Shown here one piece after another: positions 3,336 to 39,629 of a stretch of 49,579 nt of DNA; positions within the stretch are counted from its first letter, which is position 1; every line of letters starts with the position of its first letter. Origin of the DNA: Escherichia phage SRT8; the sequence record MF996376; one strand, 5' to 3'. A program made the translations under genes and the position numbers. The notes below the pieces were generated by a model, which was not told the DNA's origin, searched no databases, and saw only the letters and a list, made by a program, of their open reading frames with translations.

Positions 3336-3746
3336 TTAGAACGGGATATCGTCGTCGAATCCCTGTTGAGGTTGGGGCTGTCGCTGCTGTGTCGATTGCC
3401 CGCCGCCTTGCTGTTGTGGTGCTTGACTTTCTCCGCGCTGGCTAAATATCAGTCGCGGGAAGTCTGCCGCCTGAAGCGTGTTGTAAATCGTTCCGTTGTG
3501 CTCGCGTGAAGAAATCTTCAGCGTTTCGCACGATACCGAAATGACCTTCCCGATCTGGAATGCTTCAGCGTACCATTGCGCTAAACCGGGCTTACCGCCG
3601 TCACTAAAGAAGAAAGTGTAGTTCGTATATTCGCGGTTGCCGTCGCGCGGCTTGTAACTTTCTGCCAGTTCGACGATGTAAACAGTAGAGCCATTGCGAT
3701 CTAATGTTTTCGGTTCCTTGCGGATTTCACCTGTAATTACGTGCAT
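3336..3746 (-). CDS. ssb: Single-stranded DNA-binding protein
   Basis: OB-fold-like N-terminus, Gln/Gly/Pro-rich linker and acidic C-terminal tail DDDIPF characteristic of SSB. Confidence 0.85.
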   Translation of the reverse strand: MHVITGEIRKEPKTLDRNGSTVYIVELAESYKPRDGNREYTNYTFFFSDGGKPGLAQWYAEAFQIGKVISVSCETLKISSREHNGTIYNTLQAADFPRLIFSQRGESQAPQQQGGGQSTQQRQPQPQQGFDDDIPF

Positions 3747-3792
3747 TCTTTAATCTCCTGTAAAAATGTGCGACCTTCGCCGCCCGTTGATA

Positions 3793-4446
3793 TTATTCGA
3801 AATCGTTGATTGATTGAGATTGTACCGCTTGACGCTGTTCCGGTTCAACTGGTTTTTTCTGTTCCGGCTTTTCAGCTGGGCGGAATCCGCGCGCTTTACC
3901 AACTTCAAATTTCGCTTTCAATTTGTTGTAGTGATCTTGGACGATTGCTTTGTTTGCCGCGTCACACTGTCTAAACGCTGTCGCCCAAACATCTTTTAAC
4001 TGTTCGAAATCTTCGCATTCGTCAAGATCCTTTTTCCAATCCGCCGCCGACTTGACAGCTAATTGCGCGTCGTCGTCCGCTTGGCTAATGCCCAATGCCG
4101 CTGCCAGTCCGTAACGTCGTGCGTATGTCATTGCAGATCCTACGCCTTGCGGGTCACGCTTCGCGATTGGCATTGACATAAAGAACCGGGCGAATTGACC
4201 GCTTTCCGCATGAATAAGCATCGTTTCAAGATGGAAGGTTGTGTCGGTGCTTGTGTCAAGCATGGATTGCATAATCATGATCCCGTTATCCGTCAATGCT
4301 GGGGTAACGGCCTCCATCATAGAATCAAGCGTCGCATATTTGTTTTTCAGGTGTGTGTTTTGCTTGTCTTTCTTGGCCTTTACGAACTTGCCACGCGCCT
4401 TAAACAGAGCCGGAAGGATTTGATCGGATTGTTGGGAAAGAATCAT
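3793..4446 (-). CDS. ERF-family single-strand annealing (recombination) protein
   Basis: Resemblance to Erf annealases (SAMTYARRYGL region); sits between SSB and an exonuclease as in phage recombination modules. Confidence 0.55.
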   Translation of the reverse strand: MILSQQSDQILPALFKARGKFVKAKKDKQNTHLKNKYATLDSMMEAVTPALTDNGIMIMQSMLDTSTDTTFHLETMLIHAESGQFARFFMSMPIAKRDPQGVGSAMTYARRYGLAAALGISQADDDAQLAVKSAADWKKDLDECEDFEQLKDVWATAFRQCDAANKAIVQDHYNKLKAKFEVGKARGFRPAEKPEQKKPVEPEQRQAVQSQSINDFE

Positions 4447-4528: not shown

Positions 4529-5599
4529 TTATAATGCGTGTTTGTACTGATACCTCACCCACTGAGGCGTTTCTAAATCGACTTCAGCCGCGCCGTTAGC
4601 ATATGAAGGCCATACGTCTGATTCTACGCACTCTTTGTATGTGTGAACTACGCTAACGTATTGTGTACGCCCGATTCGAAGCTGTTCCGGCGTCATACGA
4701 TAGCCCATCGGCAAGAATGGTTCCTTCTTCTCTTGAGCAAGGAGGCGGACAACAATCGGGATATTCGGATCTACTCCTTCGAATGCCCCAGCCTGAATTG
4801 CTCGCTTCAGTAAGTCATGCTGTAACGCCATTTTCAAATAGTAGCCGTGGTTAAATGCCAATCGCGGAAACTCCAACGGGTTAGCGCTTGTCGTAGTTTT
4901 GAAGTCGGTAATCACTAGCGCTTCAGGATGAATAACCGTTTCGTAAACCGGATCGCCTTCGTCGGAATAACCAGTCAGCACACGCGCTTCGACGTTCTCG
5001 CGTAAATCTAAGTGATCGAGTCGAACCTTAACCTTCACGCCGGAAATCGTTCCGAAGATTGAAACTTCGTGCATTGCTGTTTCACTGTTGATGCAAGCGT
5101 CATGTTCCGGGATTGATTCAAGAACTTTTCGCATTGTAACGCAAGCGTCGTATGCTTCGGCGTCTACTAACTGCTTGCCTTCTGCCCGCGCTTCGGCTTC
5201 CGCCACCATTTCGATCAGGTATTGAACGTTAAGCATTTCGCCACAATAAACCATCATTTTCAAAAGGTCGGGATACTGCTTCCCTGAAGTACCTTTCAGG
5301 CCGAATGATTTTAACTTAGCGGATAACCCGGCTTGCGACGTGATCAGATCCTTAAACTCGGACGGAGCCGGGCAACGTTTGTAAGTCGCTTCAAACAATT
5401 TTTTGCTTTCGAAGTTCGTGTGCGATTGTGTCCCGAACTCCAGCGCCTTAGTTGTCTGATTCTTCTTAAATCTCCAGTTAGCCGGGCAGGTATTGAAGAT
5501 ATCGGCAAGGCTTGAGCCGCTTACGTACTCCGCCGCCCAACCTTTCGGATCGTGGTATTCGTCGTTGTTAAGCTGTTTGTTGGTGAATACTTTAAACAT
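4529..5599 (-). CDS. PD-(D/E)XK family recombination exonuclease (YqaJ/lambda Exo-like)
   Basis: ITDFKTT motif of the PD-(D/E)XK nuclease core; gene order exonuclease-annealase-SSB; good RBS. Confidence 0.55.
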   Translation of the reverse strand: MFKVFTNKQLNNDEYHDPKGWAAEYVSGSSLADIFNTCPANWRFKKNQTTKALEFGTQSHTNFESKKLFEATYKRCPAPSEFKDLITSQAGLSAKLKSFGLKGTSGKQYPDLLKMMVYCGEMLNVQYLIEMVAEAEARAEGKQLVDAEAYDACVTMRKVLESIPEHDACINSETAMHEVSIFGTISGVKVKVRLDHLDLRENVEARVLTGYSDEGDPVYETVIHPEALVITDFKTTTSANPLEFPRLAFNHGYYLKMALQHDLLKRAIQAGAFEGVDPNIPIVVRLLAQEKKEPFLPMGYRMTPEQLRIGRTQYVSVVHTYKECVESDVWPSYANGAAEVDLETPQWVRYQYKHAL

Positions 5600-6147
5600 T
5601 CGTTTATCTCCTTCGTTGATGATGTGGTCATTATAGCCAGTAGGAACATTTAGTCAACAGTTACGCTGTAATTGTGCGTAATCATTCCTTAGAAAAAATA
5701 CGATTACACAAAATCTCTATGTAATTCAATACTATAAAGCGTGTAAAGTTGCATGTATAAGATGTAAGCTTGTAATCACTCTATAGAGAAATATCAACAT
5801 TCCCCATCGATAACGCATCATTCCATAGAGAATCACTATCAATTTGAACGCATCACAAAAAACACGATTACATCGCTTACATTGATTACATGATAATTAC
5901 ACATATAAAAAACCAATTTAAGATTATTATTATTATCTATATATTATAAGGAGTTAGCGCATATCCGGGCGCTCTATAGCTGCTCAAATTTTGCGCGGAT
6001 TCTGTAATCATTAAAATCGTAGACAAAAATTACACAGATTACACGTAATAGGATTACGGCGTGATTTTTCCGGATCGCACTTTTTGCCAACAATCACGAT
6101 CGCAAACGTGTATAATGCCGATAAGCAAACGAATGGAGGGTTATAGG
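5600..6147. other. AT-rich non-coding hub with short repeats (gattaca-like iterons, TTA x5 tract, tgtataagatgtaagc block)
   Basis: About 550 bp without a credible ORF; shares conserved blocks with the hub at 35990-36700. Confidence 0.6.
6075..6116 (+). promoter_or_regulatory. Palindromic element variant (atcgcactttttgccaa) followed 18 nt later by TATAAT; putative promoter cassette for the lipoprotein gene
   Basis: Same arrangement as the early-gene cassettes. Confidence 0.45.
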
Positions 6148-6375
6148 ATGAAGAAGAAATTTATTGTCGCGGCGATTGCGTTAGCTCTGATTGGTTGTGC
6201 TGATATGCCGAAAAGAACGTGTACCGCTATATACGAATCTAGATCTAACAAATACGAAGTGTATGTGTTCGGAACGAGGCTCAATGGAGGGGAGTTAATG
6301 TTACGCGCCGGATACCCGTTCTCATTTCATTATGTAAACGAAAGGCAATTCACCACTCACGACTGCAAACGATGA
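6148..6375 (+). CDS. Small outer-membrane lipoprotein, Cor-like superinfection-exclusion candidate
   Basis: Signal peptide with lipobox LIGC (MKKKFIVAAIALALIGCAD); 75 aa; own promoter; adjacent to tail genes. Confidence 0.55.
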   Translation: MKKKFIVAAIALALIGCADMPKRTCTAIYESRSNKYEVYVFGTRLNGGELMLRAGYPFSFHYVNERQFTTHDCKR

Positions 6376-6382
6376 AAAATAT

Positions 6383-6408
6383 AAAGCCCGGTTAATTCCG
6401 GGCTTTTT
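6383..6408. terminator. Bidirectional intrinsic terminator (AAAGCCCGG-TTAATT-CCGGGCTTTTT)
   Basis: Perfect hairpin with T-run on plus strand and A-run on the other side. Confidence 0.75.
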
Positions 6409-6409
6409 C

Positions 6410-7081
6410 TTATAGTCCATCAACGTTTATAGCTGTTATTGTCACCCCTGTATTAAGATATCCTACAACGCTACCGCTTGCCGCCTGACTTGATACGGCA
6501 TTAATCCTTGTCCCGCCTCCGCTGTTATATGCTCCAGTAGACGCGGATATGTTAATTATCTGCGGCTGTCCCTGAACAAATATTTGTATAAGCGTCGCAC
6601 CCATAATCATTGGAGACACGGCATAATTCCCCGGAAGAGTCTGATCGATATTTATCCCCCCGCCATTACCTACAGTACCAACAGTAACAAGATCGGTTAA
6701 TACCCTGCTTTCATTAGTCAGTATGCAAGTCCCTGACGCGTCCCATATAGCCATTCCATAGCGCGGGGTTGGTTGCGGGAATCTTGCGAACACATACGCC
6801 GTAACTGTGAAGTGCGGGTTATTCCTTCCCTGAATACTACCGCCGAATAATATTTGACCGCCCGATCTTGTTGCGCTAAGGGTTGCCCTGTTATCAGATC
6901 TCAAGAAAACCATGGCGGGATATGATGGATTAATATCTATTGTTCCGCTAGCGCCCTTATAATCAGCGCCAACATCAACGGATGATACTGAAGCCTTAGT
7001 GTAAAGAACGAACGGAGTTGATACCGGAGTTATAAACGGATGCCCCGAATTACTGTCAATGTAAGCGCCATATCTAGCCAT
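6410..7081 (-). CDS. Hypothetical Gly/Ser/Thr/Asn-rich protein, last gene of the tail operon (possible distal tail or receptor-binding accessory)
   Basis: ORF with RBS, positioned after the J-like gene; composition typical of beta-rich fibre proteins. Confidence 0.45.
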   Translation of the reverse strand: MARYGAYIDSNSGHPFITPVSTPFVLYTKASVSSVDVGADYKGASGTIDINPSYPAMVFLRSDNRATLSATRSGGQILFGGSIQGRNNPHFTVTAYVFARFPQPTPRYGMAIWDASGTCILTNESRVLTDLVTVGTVGNGGGINIDQTLPGNYAVSPMIMGATLIQIFVQGQPQIINISASTGAYNSGGGTRINAVSSQAASGSVVGYLNTGVTITAINVDGL

Positions 7082-7083
7082 AA

Positions 7084-7389
7084 TTAAGCATTCTCCAAGA
7101 ATACAACCAATTCACAATTAGATGCCGGGTAGTTACCGATCCCGATATCAGACGCCGGATAGATTGAAATGTTATTACCGTTTGCAACTATTCGTCGGCC
7201 TATCTTTTGGCCTCCAGTATCAAGCGTTACCGCAAACCCTACTTTCATCCCCTGCGGAACATCGAAATTCCATGAGCCGGAATTCTGACCGCTACTAAGA
7301 TTTATGATTCCAATAACCGAAACTGGCTTAATGCCGTAGTTATTATAGTTTCCGTTACCGTCCCACGTTCCAATGCCGTAAGAAGCCAT
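7084..7389 (-). CDS. Hypothetical small tail-associated protein
   Basis: ORF with AAGGAGG RBS immediately downstream of the J-like gene. Confidence 0.45.
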   Translation of the reverse strand: MASYGIGTWDGNGNYNNYGIKPVSVIGIINLSSGQNSGSWNFDVPQGMKVGFAVTLDTGGQKIGRRIVANGNNISIYPASDIGIGNYPASNCELVVFLENA

Positions 7390-7439: not shown

Positions 7440-10400
7440 TTACCATACGCCAGTAATTCTACCAATCTGGACGCGAAGAACGCCATTCTGATCTCTAACG
7501 CTGATCGTCTGGTTATCCTGCTTCATCGAACCCTCGCCCGGAGTTGAACCGAAGTTAAGGAACGTGCCGTCCTTCCCTAAGTGCCACCCCGACTGATTCC
7601 ATACATAGTTGTTTGATTGAATGTATCCACCAATCATGGCATTAGTGATGAATCCGTCCTTAATCACCGCGCTACTTAGTATTACCTGCCCGCCCTCAAC
7701 GATAAACGGGTATCTAATTTGATTATTAGCACCGTTATAGATCGCGAATCTGTCGGCCTCAAACAGAAGTTGCGATTTAACACCACCCACACCAGAAGCT
7801 ACAAGCGACATTGCGATTCCGGCGCTGTACTGCTGCCCGTTGTACGTCAATCCAAGCTTAACTCCATACATCGCGCCGACTGAATCAACGTTAGCCCACG
7901 AATCAAGTTTCTGATTCAATGCCGCTTCGTTGTTTCCGATCCTTGCGCTTAACGCCGTGTCCGCCGTGGTTCTCGCTTCCGTTTCGTTGGCGATTGCCTG
8001 TTGAACCTGCGTTAACTGCGCCTGAATATCGTCGCCTACAGCCGCGCGTAAATCTTCAATTTCCTGCGATAGCGCTTCCGTTTCCGTGGCGATAACCTGT
8101 CGAAGTTCGGTATTCTGCGCGTTAATCCTTCCGTCGAAATCCGCTTCCATCTGCGAAACTTGCGTTACGCGGGCTTCCGTTTCATTCGCGATAAGCTGTA
8201 ACGACTCTTTAATCTGCGCCGTGAATTTTCCGTTCTTCACTCGCTGAATTCGGACGTCTTTGTCGTTCGCTAACGCGTTTTCGATTGCCGATTCCGCCGT
8301 GTTCTGGATTCTTGCGATCGCGTCGGTTGCGTTCTCCTTCAGCCACTGATAGCCCGGCGAATTCTCAATATCAACCTTAATTTCTCCGATAATGCTTTCC
8401 ACATCAGTAGACGCCATCCCCGGTATTAAGTTAGTCCACGAAGACACGTTGCCGATTTTGTCGATGGCGCGAATTCTATAGAAAATCATCTTCCCGGCCT
8501 CAAGCGGAGTATGGAAATACTCATGTTGCGGATACGGGACTAACGTTAGCAACGATGCATTTTCTACGCTGTTGTTTGGCGATTGCTGCACCTCTATGTA
8601 AGCCGTGTCGCCGGAGTCTTCAGGCATACCCCATTTTAACCGGATGCCGAAAACAACGTCGTCGGATGCCGTAAAGTTAATTGGCGCTCCCGGCTCGCCT
8701 ACCTTGCCAGTTAACCCAACAGTTACAACCTCAGACCACACGGAAGCATTTTCCGAAGAAGAGATAGCGCGAACCCGGACGGAGTATTCACCCGCGTAAA
8801 TACCTTCGACGAATGTTTCGTTAGTTTGTGTGCGAGGAACGTTAATCCAGTTTCCGTTATTCTTGCGCCATTGCACCTCGTAAAATGCCGCGTAATCGAC
8901 CTTATCCCAGCTAATGACCATCGTTTCTACGCTCAAGCCCTGCACTACTCGCGAAAACGATTCGACCGCTACGTTTTTCGGTGATGGCAACTTATCAGGA
9001 TCTACGACACTTGTCGGCCTGTCGTCCACATTCACGCCGTAGTCGATCGCGTCGTATTTGTTCGGGTCATACTCAACAGCCGTGATGCTGAATACGAACT
9101 CTTCGTCGCCGTCGCCCTTCTTGATATCGGTCACAACGTATTGTTGCAATGCAACGTCGGTTCGGTCGATAGCAAAGATAGTGTTTGGCGCGACGTCAAA
9201 GCCGAACCCTACGTTTATTTCTATCGTCTTGCCGTCTGGTGACACTGAAGAAATAGTGCGCTTAACGGGCTTTCCATCCGGCTTATTTACGACAATAAAA
9301 TCACCAGCGCGGGCGTCAACACGAAACGCCGTAAAAATCTGCAACCCTGATACTTCCATGACTCGCCCGGAAAGGTTTAACGTAAGATTGCTTGACCAGA
9401 AATTATCTGCAATCGCCACGACGTCGCCGATTTGCGGGATCATACCTTCCAGCCCGGTAGCAAAGTTAACCGTCGTGCTGCGAAGGTTAGTTCGCAGAAT
9501 CCAGCGTCCGCGCCTGTTAGCCTCGCTGCGTCGCGTACATCCGATCGCTGTAATGCTTGTCGGGTTATTGCCGAAGCGTCGCGCCGCGTCAGTATCGAAT
9601 ACAGGTTCAACGTCCTGTTGATATAAGTTTTCATGATCATCAAACTGCACGTTGCAAGTCGTGTACATGCTCTTTTCGCTCGCGAACGAGTAAGAGAAGT
9701 TACCGCCGACTACGTTTTCGTTGGTGAAAATGTAAGACGGGTCGCGCGGCTTATCGATCACGACAGATAAACTTTCGCCATTCCAAAACGACATACCACG
9801 GAAGATTGAACAGATATCGCGAACCAGTTTAAACGCTTCAATCTGCGACTGAATAACCACATCGCAAAGGTAACGCGGTTCGGTTCCGCCTTTTCCGTCT
9901 GGAACCATCTGATCGCAATATTGCCCGGCTTCGTATAACGCCCACTTATCGACATTAATCCCTAACTCACGCTGATCTAACCCGTAACGTTGGTTCGTGA
10001 TGATATCGTAAAGAACCCATGCCGGGTTATTACTCCACGCCTTTTTGAACGTGCCGTCCCAGCTTCCGTTATAGTCGCGGGTAATCGGGTTATAGTTCGA
10101 CGGGACGTTAATCACCTTCCACTTTTTACGAAGCGAAATATTCGGGATCTGCGTCGGAAACATCTTCGAATCGAATTCCACGAATAACAGACCAGTCAGC
10201 GGATAACGGAATTTAGCGTCGATTACTTCCGCATAGCTTTTCAACTGGATTTCGTCGATCAGGTTAGAATCGTCGGAATCAGGAGTAACGCGCGACACTC
10301 TCACGATTACTTGACTGTTGAACGCCGGAAGATTGATTCGGCGGCTACGGTCATAACCCGACATTGTTTTACCGTCGATCACGTCGGTGAAGTATTCGGT

Positions 10401-10865
10401 AAACGCCGCCCCATCGACAGCCAATTCTACTTTGTATTCGACGCGAACGCCGTTCTTGTCGCCGTTGTTTTCCACCTTCACGCCACGCGGCATATACATT
10501 TTGATACGGATAGCTGAAAGCGACTTGTTCGTAACGTTAATGCTGTATGGCGTATCTCGTTCGATAACGCGATTCATCGTTACTTCGCTTGCGCTGTCGG
10601 TGAATCCCTGTATGTAATCTTGCGTTTGCGTACCGGGGCGAAACTCCGCCGTGATGCCTTCATAGTTGTATGTTCCGTCGTCGTTCATTACCGGAACGTC
10701 GTTAAGCAACAGCATTTTCATATCAAAGTCTGGATCGACTTCGCCGTCTGACACTGCCAGCAAAACGCGAATCTTGTTGATTGAAATCAAATTATCTTCC
10801 ATCTCAACAGGATTGTGAGGCTTGCCGCCACCGCCTTTCGATCCGGTTATCACTTTTTTAATCAT
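7440..10865 (-). CDS. Tail tip / central tail fibre, host specificity protein (lambda gpJ-like) with coiled-coil C-terminal region
   Basis: 1141-aa ORF at the end of the lambda-like tail operon after I/K/L/M; heptad-like repeats TEARVTQV and TEALSQEI in the C-terminal region. Confidence 0.85.
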   Translation of the reverse strand: MIKKVITGSKGGGGKPHNPVEMEDNLISINKIRVLLAVSDGEVDPDFDMKMLLLNDVPVMNDDGTYNYEGITAEFRPGTQTQDYIQGFTDSASEVTMNRVIERDTPYSINVTNKSLSAIRIKMYMPRGVKVENNGDKNGVRVEYKVELAVDGAAFTEYFTDVIDGKTMSGYDRSRRINLPAFNSQVIVRVSRVTPDSDDSNLIDEIQLKSYAEVIDAKFRYPLTGLLFVEFDSKMFPTQIPNISLRKKWKVINVPSNYNPITRDYNGSWDGTFKKAWSNNPAWVLYDIITNQRYGLDQRELGINVDKWALYEAGQYCDQMVPDGKGGTEPRYLCDVVIQSQIEAFKLVRDICSIFRGMSFWNGESLSVVIDKPRDPSYIFTNENVVGGNFSYSFASEKSMYTTCNVQFDDHENLYQQDVEPVFDTDAARRFGNNPTSITAIGCTRRSEANRRGRWILRTNLRSTTVNFATGLEGMIPQIGDVVAIADNFWSSNLTLNLSGRVMEVSGLQIFTAFRVDARAGDFIVVNKPDGKPVKRTISSVSPDGKTIEINVGFGFDVAPNTIFAIDRTDVALQQYVVTDIKKGDGDEEFVFSITAVEYDPNKYDAIDYGVNVDDRPTSVVDPDKLPSPKNVAVESFSRVVQGLSVETMVISWDKVDYAAFYEVQWRKNNGNWINVPRTQTNETFVEGIYAGEYSVRVRAISSSENASVWSEVVTVGLTGKVGEPGAPINFTASDDVVFGIRLKWGMPEDSGDTAYIEVQQSPNNSVENASLLTLVPYPQHEYFHTPLEAGKMIFYRIRAIDKIGNVSSWTNLIPGMASTDVESIIGEIKVDIENSPGYQWLKENATDAIARIQNTAESAIENALANDKDVRIQRVKNGKFTAQIKESLQLIANETEARVTQVSQMEADFDGRINAQNTELRQVIATETEALSQEIEDLRAAVGDDIQAQLTQVQQAIANETEARTTADTALSARIGNNEAALNQKLDSWANVDSVGAMYGVKLGLTYNGQQYSAGIAMSLVASGVGGVKSQLLFEADRFAIYNGANNQIRYPFIVEGGQVILSSAVIKDGFITNAMIGGYIQSNNYVWNQSGWHLGKDGTFLNFGSTPGEGSMKQDNQTISVRDQNGVLRVQIGRITGVW

Positions 10866-20676: not shown

Positions 20677-20696
20677 GATAGCACTTTTTGTTAAAG
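20677..20696 (-). promoter_or_regulatory. Palindromic element (atagcactttttgttaaag) with hairpin 20651-20675 upstream of the capsid gene
   Basis: Consensus match in inverted orientation relative to the gene. Confidence 0.45.
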
Positions 20697-28726: not shown

Positions 28727-28747
28727 GTTTAGCAATTCGTGCTAAAA
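28727..28747 (-). promoter_or_regulatory. Palindromic element cassette (TTTAGCA-ATTCG-TGCTAAA, a perfect 7-bp palindrome)
   Basis: Contains the stop codon of the upstream gene; followed by TATAGTAACCCCATCAAAACAAACGGAG leader. Confidence 0.55.
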
Positions 28748-32472: not shown

Positions 32473-32528
32473 TGATGTATCTCCTTTCGTTTGGTGTAGG
32501 GCTATTATGACATAGCCCCGATTCAGTG

Positions 32529-32550
32529 TTTTAGCAAAAAGTGCTATACG
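32529..32550 (-). promoter_or_regulatory. Palindromic element cassette
   Basis: ATAGCACTTTTTGCTAAAA then hairpin and AAAGGAG leader. Confidence 0.5.
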
Positions 32551-34409: not shown

Positions 34410-34465
34410 TTGTGTAACTCCTGTTTCGTTGTTGATGGGCTTACTATATCGCAAGCCCGGATGTG

Positions 34466-34488
34466 CGTTTTAACAAAAAGTGCTATCG
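34466..34488 (-). promoter_or_regulatory. Palindromic element cassette
   Basis: ATAGCACTTTTTGTTAAAA, hairpin, TATAGT, leader. Confidence 0.5.
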
Positions 34489-37314: not shown

Positions 37315-37335
37315 ATAGCACTTTTTGTTAAAACA
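37313..37335 (+). promoter_or_regulatory. Palindromic element cassette
   Basis: AAATAGCACTTTTTGTTAAAA then hairpin GGGGT...ACCCC. Confidence 0.5.
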
Positions 37336-37393
37336 CAATAGGGGTGGTGTGGCATCATTACCCCATCGCAAACGAGACAAGAGGATCACAAGC

Positions 37394-38551: not shown

Positions 38552-38566
38552 CACAAATTGCTAAAA
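38546..38566 (+). promoter_or_regulatory. Palindromic element cassette
   Basis: AAATAGCACAAATTGCTAAAA, hairpin GGGGTA...TACCCC, TGtTATAGT, leader. Confidence 0.55.
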
Positions 38567-38620
38567 CAACGACGGGGTATCTTGTTATAGTTACCCCATC
38601 GAAACGAAGGAGAAATAACA

Positions 38621-39556: not shown

Positions 39557-39578
39557 AATAGCACTTATTGCTAAAAGC
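39557..39578 (+). promoter_or_regulatory. Palindromic element cassette
   Basis: AAATAGCACTTATTGCTAAAAG, hairpin GGGGTA-taatc-TACCCC, leader AAGGAGA. Confidence 0.55.
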
Positions 39579-39629
39579 GTGTAGTATGGGCGGGGTATAA
39601 TCTACCCCGTTCAATAAGGAGATCTAGAA

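Follow-up and report, generated by a model that had tools for sequence, protein, structure and literature searches.

Cor-family lipoprotein gene in phage SRT8

The 49,579-nucleotide stretch of DNA analysed here (the window; sequence record MF996376) comes from Escherichia phage SRT8, which is virulent and T1-like and falls in the genus Sertoctavirus (family Drexlerviridae, subfamily Tunavirinae). A 24-kilobase (kb) stretch of it shares 97% identity with Citrobacter phage IME-JL8 and 95% with Escherichia phage BrunoManser. The subject of the analysis is a short gene, cor, and the elements that flank it (Table 1). The initial annotation had read at this locus a 75-amino-acid (aa) lipoprotein with the lipobox LIGC, transcribed opposite to its neighbours and lying next to the tail genes. 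Open reading frame (ORF), translation, and lipobox were all confirmed from the sequence and the ORF list, with the frame running on the + strand from ATG 6148 to a stop codon ending at 6375 and translating to MKKKFIVAAIALALIGCADMPKRTCTAIYESRSNKYEVYVFGTRLNGGELMLRAGYPFSFHYVNERQFTTHDCKR. Its orientation and position also hold, as both flanking genes (exoVIII, 4529-5599, and a 223-aa gene resembling phi80 gene 23) are on the - strand and a cassette of gp23-like, gp22-like, and J-like genes adjoins cor, which is convergent with the tail genes and divergent from the recombination genes.

The mechanical ORF list opens the cor frame at GTG 6061, giving 104 aa. ATG 6148 is taken as the start because neither GTG 6061 nor the in-frame ATG 6115 has a Shine-Dalgarno sequence, the former being upstream of the TATAAT -10 hexamer and the latter inside it. 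The relatives of cor have a purine-rich Shine-Dalgarno sequence at the equivalent place in an alignment of the upstream regions, and the ATGAAGAAG start aligns in all of them. The 11 invariant columns common to 17 homologues indicate that the ORF is not a product of chance.

Table 1. Features of the cor locus and the adjoining tail genes (positions refer to the window)
Feature	Position	Strand	Remarks
Degenerate copy of the 21-nucleotide repeat aaATAGCACnnnTTGnTAAAA	6072..6092	+	GGATCGCACTTTTTGCCAACA; starts 76 nucleotides before the cor ATG
-10 hexamer	6111..6116	+	TATAAT (6/6); read from the sequence
Shine-Dalgarno sequence	6135..6139	+	GGAGG, 8 nucleotides 5' of the cor ATG; read from the sequence
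cor	6148..6375	+	75-aa prolipoprotein plus stop codon; mature protein 59 aa, Cys17-Arg75
Lipoprotein signal peptide	6148..6198	+	Ends in lipobox LIGC, codons 14-17 (6187-6198)
Cys25...Cys73 pair enclosing A54-G55-Y56-(P57)-F58	6220..6366	+	Invariant columns, 17 homologues
Intrinsic terminator	6383..6406	both	AAAGCCCGG-TTAATT-CCGGGCTTT, T-runs on both strands
gp23-like gene	6410..7081	-	223 aa; PHROG 425 'membrane associated protein'
gp22-like gene	7084..7389	-	101 aa; PHROG 557 'outer membrane protein'
J-like tail tip protein	7440..10865	-	1141 aa; Pfam Phage_Tail_Tip, FNIII-A_GpJ, Phage-tail_3

Assignment to the Cor family

With the NCBIfam equivalog lamb_exclu_cor (NF047972, 'phage exclusion lipoprotein Cor'), the protein scores 40.3 bits, above the curated cutoff of 31, and residues 1-74 align to profile positions 1-77 of 78. 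Its match to PHROG 1119 ('Cor superinfection exclusion protein') has an E-value of 1.8e-25, residues 1-74 covering positions 1-75 of 78. Pfam contains no Cor model and gave a single weak match, to PF24052, below the cutoff. A word-index homologue search with the 75-aa sequence, the index being insensitive at such a length, returned one 99% match, and an exhaustive search of representative proteins returned seven. Because the protein searches gave so few matches, homologues were gathered from 50,697 phage records using tblastn, which found 222 records with matches, nearly all full length and many bearing a Cor or superinfection exclusion annotation. Amongst these are the Cor of BrunoManser (94.7% identical), JulesPiccard bas03_0031 (60.8% identical, annotated 'superinfection exclusion lipoprotein Cor'), and the Cor of T1 (58.9% identical, E 1e-24), as well as cor of phi80 (32.5% identical) and gene 24 (Cor) of N15 (30.3% identical), each of the latter two with an E-value of 2e-5 against the database. 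The T1, phi80, and N15 matches each span at least 97% of the query. Homologues 42-48% identical were found in JLBYU41, JLBYU37, JLBYU60, and Teewinot, four phages that have been shown experimentally to depend on FhuA (PMC10373560).

The Cor-type identity proposed by the initial annotation, against which an absence of similarity to Cor proteins was to count, is thus borne out by the NF047972 score above cutoff, PHROG 1119, synteny, and the clear similarity to the Cor proteins of T1, phi80, and N15. Judged from its sequence, the product of 6148-6375 is a Cor-family lipoprotein. The Cor family, its link to FhuA, and the T1-like gene arrangement have all been published, and this protein is a further member of the family; it is itself uncharacterised, and it is mis-annotated or unannotated in the closest relatives. 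In the IME-JL8 record (L006), an intact cor (88% aa identity) occupies positions 2048-2275, where no coding sequence is annotated, and the J-like tail tip gene at 3339-3899 is mislabelled 'putative ATP-dependent helicase'. In BrunoManser (L001), the gene at 9549-9776 carries the label 'hypothetical protein'.

Conserved residues of the lipoprotein

The N-terminus of Cor, MKKKFIVAAIALALIGC followed by ADMPKR..., was judged by rule from the sequence to be a lipoprotein signal peptide, in which a basic n-region (KKK) and a hydrophobic core precede the lipobox L14-I15-G16-C17. Cys17 is the lipid-bearing residue, and the residue at +2 is Ala18 rather than Asp. According to the Lol sorting rule, Asp at +2 leads to retention in the inner membrane; since the +2 residue of Cor is Ala, sorting to the outer membrane is predicted.

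Invariant in the alignment of 17 Cor homologues are G16, C17, C25, V38, A54, G55, Y56, F58, F68, and C73, and P57 is at least 90% conserved. Cys25 and Cys73 probably form a disulfide, a bond common to Llp of phage T5 and Cor (PMC9586334). Codon 32 (6241-6243) specifies Arg32, which sits in the turn joining predicted strands one and two. Between this Cor and that of BrunoManser, four of the five differing codons are non-synonymous, numbers too small to interpret.

Relation to Llp of phage T5

Several comparisons link Cor to Llp, the FhuA-inactivating lipoprotein of T5. An hhalign comparison of the 17-sequence Cor profile with Llp gave a probability of 94% (E 1.5e-7) over 71 columns with both cysteines in register, and Llp itself falls in PHROG 1119. 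In a profile search of the PDB, the best match of Cor was Llp (8a60_B, E 0.0037), the structure matches in BFVD placed Cor first and T5-like receptor-blocking lipoproteins after it, and the best structural match of the predicted Cor model was the FhuA-bound conformation of Llp. The structure comparison supports the same fold for both proteins. Llp acts by a periplasmic allosteric mechanism, and the extension of this mechanism to Cor has been suggested (PMC9586334; bioRxiv 10.64898/2026.03.26.714494). In addition, a published AlphaFold3 model docks the Cor of KanT1 to the periplasmic side of FhuA, at a site that overlaps that of Llp, with an interface predicted template modelling score (ipTM) of 0.84 (PMC13164509). 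The names in use overlap as well: RefSeq re-annotation (NC_005859.1, T5, and other T5-like records) has given Llp and homologous proteins the label 'Cor superinfection exclusion protein', and some GenBank records label the llp gene 'lysozyme'.

FhuA as the probable receptor and target of Cor

The genes beside cor point to the receptor concerned. The J-like protein, which is the host-specificity protein of the cassette, is 71% identical to J of T1, 97.7% to J of BrunoManser, and 42% to J of phi80. The gp22-like protein is 64% identical to gp22 of phi80 and 98% to its BrunoManser counterpart; the gp23-like protein is 46% identical to gp23 of phi80 and to its homologue in T1, and 97.8% to that of BrunoManser. 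Neither the gp22-like nor the gp23-like protein has a match in Pfam or NCBIfam, and the literature is split on whether such proteins are receptor-binding proteins or exclusion accessories (PMC13164509, PMC8594841). The two genes always accompany cor in FhuA-dependent phages. T1, JulesPiccard, and BrunoManser share with SRT8 the layout of J, a 101-aa gene, a gene of ~223 aa, and an inverted cor, followed by a spacer of ~550 base pairs (bp) and an exoVIII-Erf-SSB operon. In the temperate phages phi80 and N15, J, gp22, gp23, and cor are likewise found together, but all in one direction.

In small siphoviruses, receptor specificity is tied to loci downstream of gpJ that come with cognate exclusion genes, and the terminal receptor of BrunoManser (Bas12) is given as FhuA in the supplementary table of the BASEL collection (PMC8594841). 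Moreover, the Drexlerviridae and Dhillonvirus members of that collection that use FhuA carry cor and its two upstream genes (PMC13164509, 2026). Because the host-recognition cassette of SRT8 (J, gp22-like, and gp23-like; 97.7-98%) is nearly identical to that of the FhuA-dependent BrunoManser, there are strong sequence grounds for predicting that FhuA is the receptor of this phage and hence the target of Cor. IME-JL8 was isolated on Citrobacter, so the FhuA orthologue may differ.

Taken together, the gene is very probably the cor of a virulent T1-like phage, encoding a lipoprotein that inactivates FhuA in the manner of Llp. The gene, lipobox, family, conserved residues, synteny, and the fold and profile homology were computed, and expression, localisation, the disulfide, FhuA binding, and phenotype are inferred from them. 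After infection, host RNA polymerase would transcribe cor as a monocistronic unit, starting from its own cassette and stopping at the downstream hairpin. The small, beta-rich Cor domain, presumably stapled by the Cys25-Cys73 disulfide, would bind FhuA, which serves both as the phage's own receptor and as the ferrichrome transporter, from the periplasmic side and, as for Llp, push the extracellular loops of FhuA into a shape that is of no use to the receptor-binding proteins of phages. FhuA-dependent phages (the phage's own progeny, T1, phi80, and T5) would then no longer adsorb to the infected cell or to the debris it leaves, and the uptake of ferrichrome, albomycin, and colicin M would fall too. 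In a virulent phage, Cor would in this way serve two ends, namely superinfection exclusion and the protection of progeny from debris.

Expression of cor

The initial annotation had given cor a promoter of its own, consisting of an element at 6075 and a TATAAT at 6111, and a bidirectional terminator. The TATAAT is present, transcription is inferred to start near 6123, and the element is real, coinciding with a degenerate copy of a repeat (Table 1); what did not stand is a canonical -35/-10 pair. The terminator was upheld, as the downstream hairpin, with a 9-bp stem containing six G-C pairs, is called on both strands and folds stably relative to shuffled sequences (-17.2 kcal/mol, z -4.1 on the + strand; -16.4 kcal/mol, z -3.4 on the - strand). 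It would serve both cor (+) and the gp23-like gene (-), which converges on it. An Rfam scan of 5400-6600 found nothing above the gathering score, the weak matches falling on the terminator hairpin.

A 21-nucleotide (nt) direct repeat, aaATAGCACnnnTTGnTAAAA, has been reported for phage TLS ~76 nt 5' of start codons, with T1, Rtp, and Rogue1 also mentioned; the paper leaves its role as a question still to be answered (PMC11447400). The window contains GCACNNNTTGYYAA 18 times as an exact match, compared with 0.23 expected, and T1 contains 17 copies; one of the 18 is GCACTTTTTGCCAA (6077-6090), within the copy upstream of cor. The copies are at 6077, 16850, 20681, 36433, 37318, 38551, 39062, 39561, and 41724 on the + strand and at 28742, 29376, 31270, 32544, 34483, 35037, 35393, 45302, and 45630 on the - strand. 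All copies preceding an identifiable gene point along transcription; no qualifying ORF start was located within 200 nt of those at 20681 and 36433. The copies have a common arrangement downstream, with a -10-like hexamer located exactly 22 nt past TTGYTA in 15 of the 18 (about half with a TGn extended -10), a Shine-Dalgarno sequence and ATG ~56-66 nt past the TTGYTA hexamer in most, and a trailing conserved leader, CATCnAAACGA...GGAG, of which the cor copy shares AAACGA...GGAG.

The cor copy lies on the same strand as cor and matches the core GCACnnnTTGyyAA exactly, while its flanks are degenerate, reading ATCGCAC...TTGCCAAC in place of the consensus ATAGCAC...TTGCTAAA. It also differs in being 21 nt from a perfect TATAAT, where the other copies in the window are typically 22 nt from their -10. 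Upstream of cor, CGTGTATAAT/CGTGTATAGT is conserved in Sertoctavirus and Hanrivervirus phages, and the Hanrivervirus sequences keep both CGTGTATART and the 21-nt spacer at a Cor identity of just 44-47% to SRT8 in the protein alignment. A sigma-54 (-24/-12) reading of GGATCGCAC...TTGC was rejected, as the GG-to-GC spacing is 14 rather than 12 and the relatives are without the GG. The conservation upstream of cor and the membership in a repeat family suggest that cor has a dedicated expression cassette of the phage's own type, with promoter activity.

The repeat in the window reads as a palindrome, TAGCA-N5-TGCTA, with its centre near -42, which fits the placement of a class-II activator site and not that of a -35 box. 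Many repeat-linked promoters were noted by eye to have the -10 within a short GC-rich inverted repeat or directly behind it (e.g., GGGGT...TATAGT.ACCCC, GGGCTT...TATAGTAAGCCC, and CCCGGC-GAAA-GTCGGG-TATTAT), at 32500-32540, 34440-34480, 37330-37365, 38565-38600, 39575-39610, and similar sites. One tentative suggestion, which is rather unlikely to be correct, is that the repeat is the site of a dimeric factor of phage or host origin that drives ~18 units including cor, and that cor itself is possibly independent of the factor and immediate. If this were true, the degenerate half-sites and the perfect TATAAT could free cor from the factor and allow its immediate expression, as befits a protein that has to close the receptor early.

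Alternative explanations and points against the interpretation

A number of observations weigh against reading this gene as an expressed, FhuA-inactivating counterpart of Llp. The consensus promoter scan made no sigma-70 call upstream of cor, because the sole TTGnnA there (TTGCCA, 6084-6089) sits 21 nt from the TATAAT, compared with a canonical 16-18 nt, leaving no -35 at the canonical spacing. Position 32, Arg in SRT8, is Gly in 13 of the 16 other homologues in the alignment, one of them a database protein (P0001) with 99% identity. Taken on its own, the Foldseek match of the Cor model to Llp is weak (E 0.04). The AGYPF motif, invariant in Cor, is absent from Llp, which implies that the contact surface of Cor may differ. 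Cor may also need partners that Llp does not. Although Cor has been assigned to the same family, its own mechanism is described as not yet elucidated (bioRxiv 10.64898/2026.03.26.714494). The exclusion phenotype is a prediction for this protein and likewise for its 95-99% identical relatives, and the annotations of the closest genomes, hypothetical in BrunoManser and missing in IME-JL8, lend it no name.

The alternatives differ mainly in what Cor does to FhuA and why. The main payoff of FhuA masking could be 'lytic conversion', in which progeny are spared from injecting into debris, rather than the blocking of competitors, and this explanation falls only a little short of an even chance. The phage is a virulent T1-like one with no lysogeny module in the neighbourhood, the homologue Llp bears the name 'lytic conversion lipoprotein', and stopping progeny from adsorbing to debris is the stated role of such proteins (PMC13164509, PMC12685063); however, lytic conversion is compatible with superinfection exclusion, as one inactivation of FhuA yields both effects. 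It is much less probable, and on balance unlikely, that Cor blocks FhuA-dependent infection by some other route, either by hindering the TonB-FhuA coupling needed by T1 and phi80 or by forming complexes with other outer-membrane proteins. The published description of its mechanism as unresolved (bioRxiv 10.64898/2026.03.26.714494), the lack of AGYPF in Llp, and the constant company of the gp22-like and gp23-like genes with cor, which llp does not keep, would fit such a route, but the full-length profile homology, the best structural match to FhuA-bound Llp, and the docking of KanT1 Cor at the Llp site argue for inactivation in the manner of Llp.

Another outer-membrane receptor (BtuB, LptD, YncD, or FepA) could be the target, as it is for exclusion lipoproteins at the same position in other T1-like phages. 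Small siphophages do exchange receptor modules along with the cognate exclusion lipoproteins (PMC8594841), Rtp45 blocks LptD (PMC12685063), and Cor/Llp-like proteins are present in phages using BtuB (PMC13164509). Nevertheless, this is very improbable for SRT8, where the whole cassette is of the FhuA-linked type, homologous to those of T1, phi80, and N15 and ~98% identical to that of BrunoManser, and where the match of Cor to Rtp45 (9rps_D) has an E-value of 1.8 and covers the signal peptide only. Least credible of all is that the gene encodes a lysis lipoprotein, the outer-membrane subunit of a spanin (o-spanin), or is a non-functional chance ORF. Small size, phage origin, and an outer-membrane lipid anchor are traits that o-spanins share with Cor, but the spanin of T1-like phages is unimolecular and its gene lies at another place, and cor is outside a lysis cassette, neither embedded in nor adjoining a gene for the inner-membrane subunit (i-spanin). 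Strong Cor-specific homology, together with conservation across genera that includes invariant residues, speaks against both the spanin and the chance ORF. The preferred interpretation of the gene is thus a Cor that inactivates the phage's own receptor FhuA.

The spacer between exoVIII and cor

The exoVIII-cor spacer has features of its own. Within 380 bp (5678-6057) of this spacer, which is 66% A+T, there are eight GATTAC/GTAATC hexamers, and the window as a whole has 55 compared with 27 expected. The cluster is kept in BrunoManser (seven) and IME-JL8 (eight), none are found in Hanrivervirus phages, and T1 and JulesPiccard have 8-9 KTTACR motifs in its place. The cluster looks like a set of lineage-specific protein-binding iterons beside an AT-rich stretch (5890-5950), and it is possibly an origin or an operator array. 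On the - strand, 5630-5657 contains a near-consensus sigma-70 promoter (TTGACT-16-TATAAT, 11/12) that faces the exoVIII/recombination/SSB operon and is divergent from cor.

Comparison with known systems

The significance of this gene is chiefly that of an annotation correction, since a protein called hypothetical in BrunoManser and left unannotated in IME-JL8 is clearly a Cor. The assignment predicts that infected cells become refractory to relatives of T1, T5, and phi80, as well as to albomycin and colicin M, which is relevant to the design of phage cocktails and to the reading of T1-type contaminations. It also supplies one more Cor/Llp sequence for mapping the residues that contact FhuA, leaving the current understanding unchanged.

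The closest known counterparts are the Cor proteins of T1 and other Drexlerviridae, with which the SRT8 protein shares 58.9-60.8% identity over the full length, a size of 75 aa, the lipobox, the cysteine pair, and AGYPF. The inverted position of the gene, between the J, 101-aa, and ~225-aa genes on one side and the exoVIII recombination operon on the other, is identical to that in T1. The differences from T1 are a sequence divergence of ~40%, a repeat copy and 21-nt spacer to TATAAT where T1 has TTGCAA-17-TACAAT, and a 34-nt gap with a clean bidirectional terminator where the gap in T1 is 21 nt. The experimentally studied Cor proteins of phi80, N15, HK022, and mEp167 resemble that of SRT8 in family (NF047972), length, and invariant residues, and those of phi80 and N15 also in identity (30-33%) and in the same J/gp22/gp23/cor cassette. 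In these temperate phages, however, cor points the same way as J and its expression comes from the prophage (lysogenic conversion), whereas in SRT8 it is inverted and belongs to a virulent phage, and it must therefore act during the lytic cycle.

Rtp45-type lipoproteins (PDB 9RPS) are likewise small, act from the periplasmic side, occupy the same slot downstream of the tail-tip genes, and block the phage's own receptor (PMC12685063), but their target is LptD and they work by steric displacement rather than allostery. The similarity of Rtp45 (9RPS chain D) to Cor is confined to residues 3-25, with no relation beyond the signal peptide. T5 Llp (PDB 8A60 with FhuA; 7QJF free) is only ~22-24% identical to Cor, is without AGYPF, and is not in the NCBIfam Cor equivalog by name. 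It is encoded beside the receptor-binding gene pb5 in Demerecviridae, whereas the neighbours of cor in SRT8 are the gp23-like, gp22-like, and J-like genes. Because of this difference in genomic partner and the presence of AGYPF, the SRT8 protein is filed as Cor and not as Llp, although by analogy it most probably works as Llp does.

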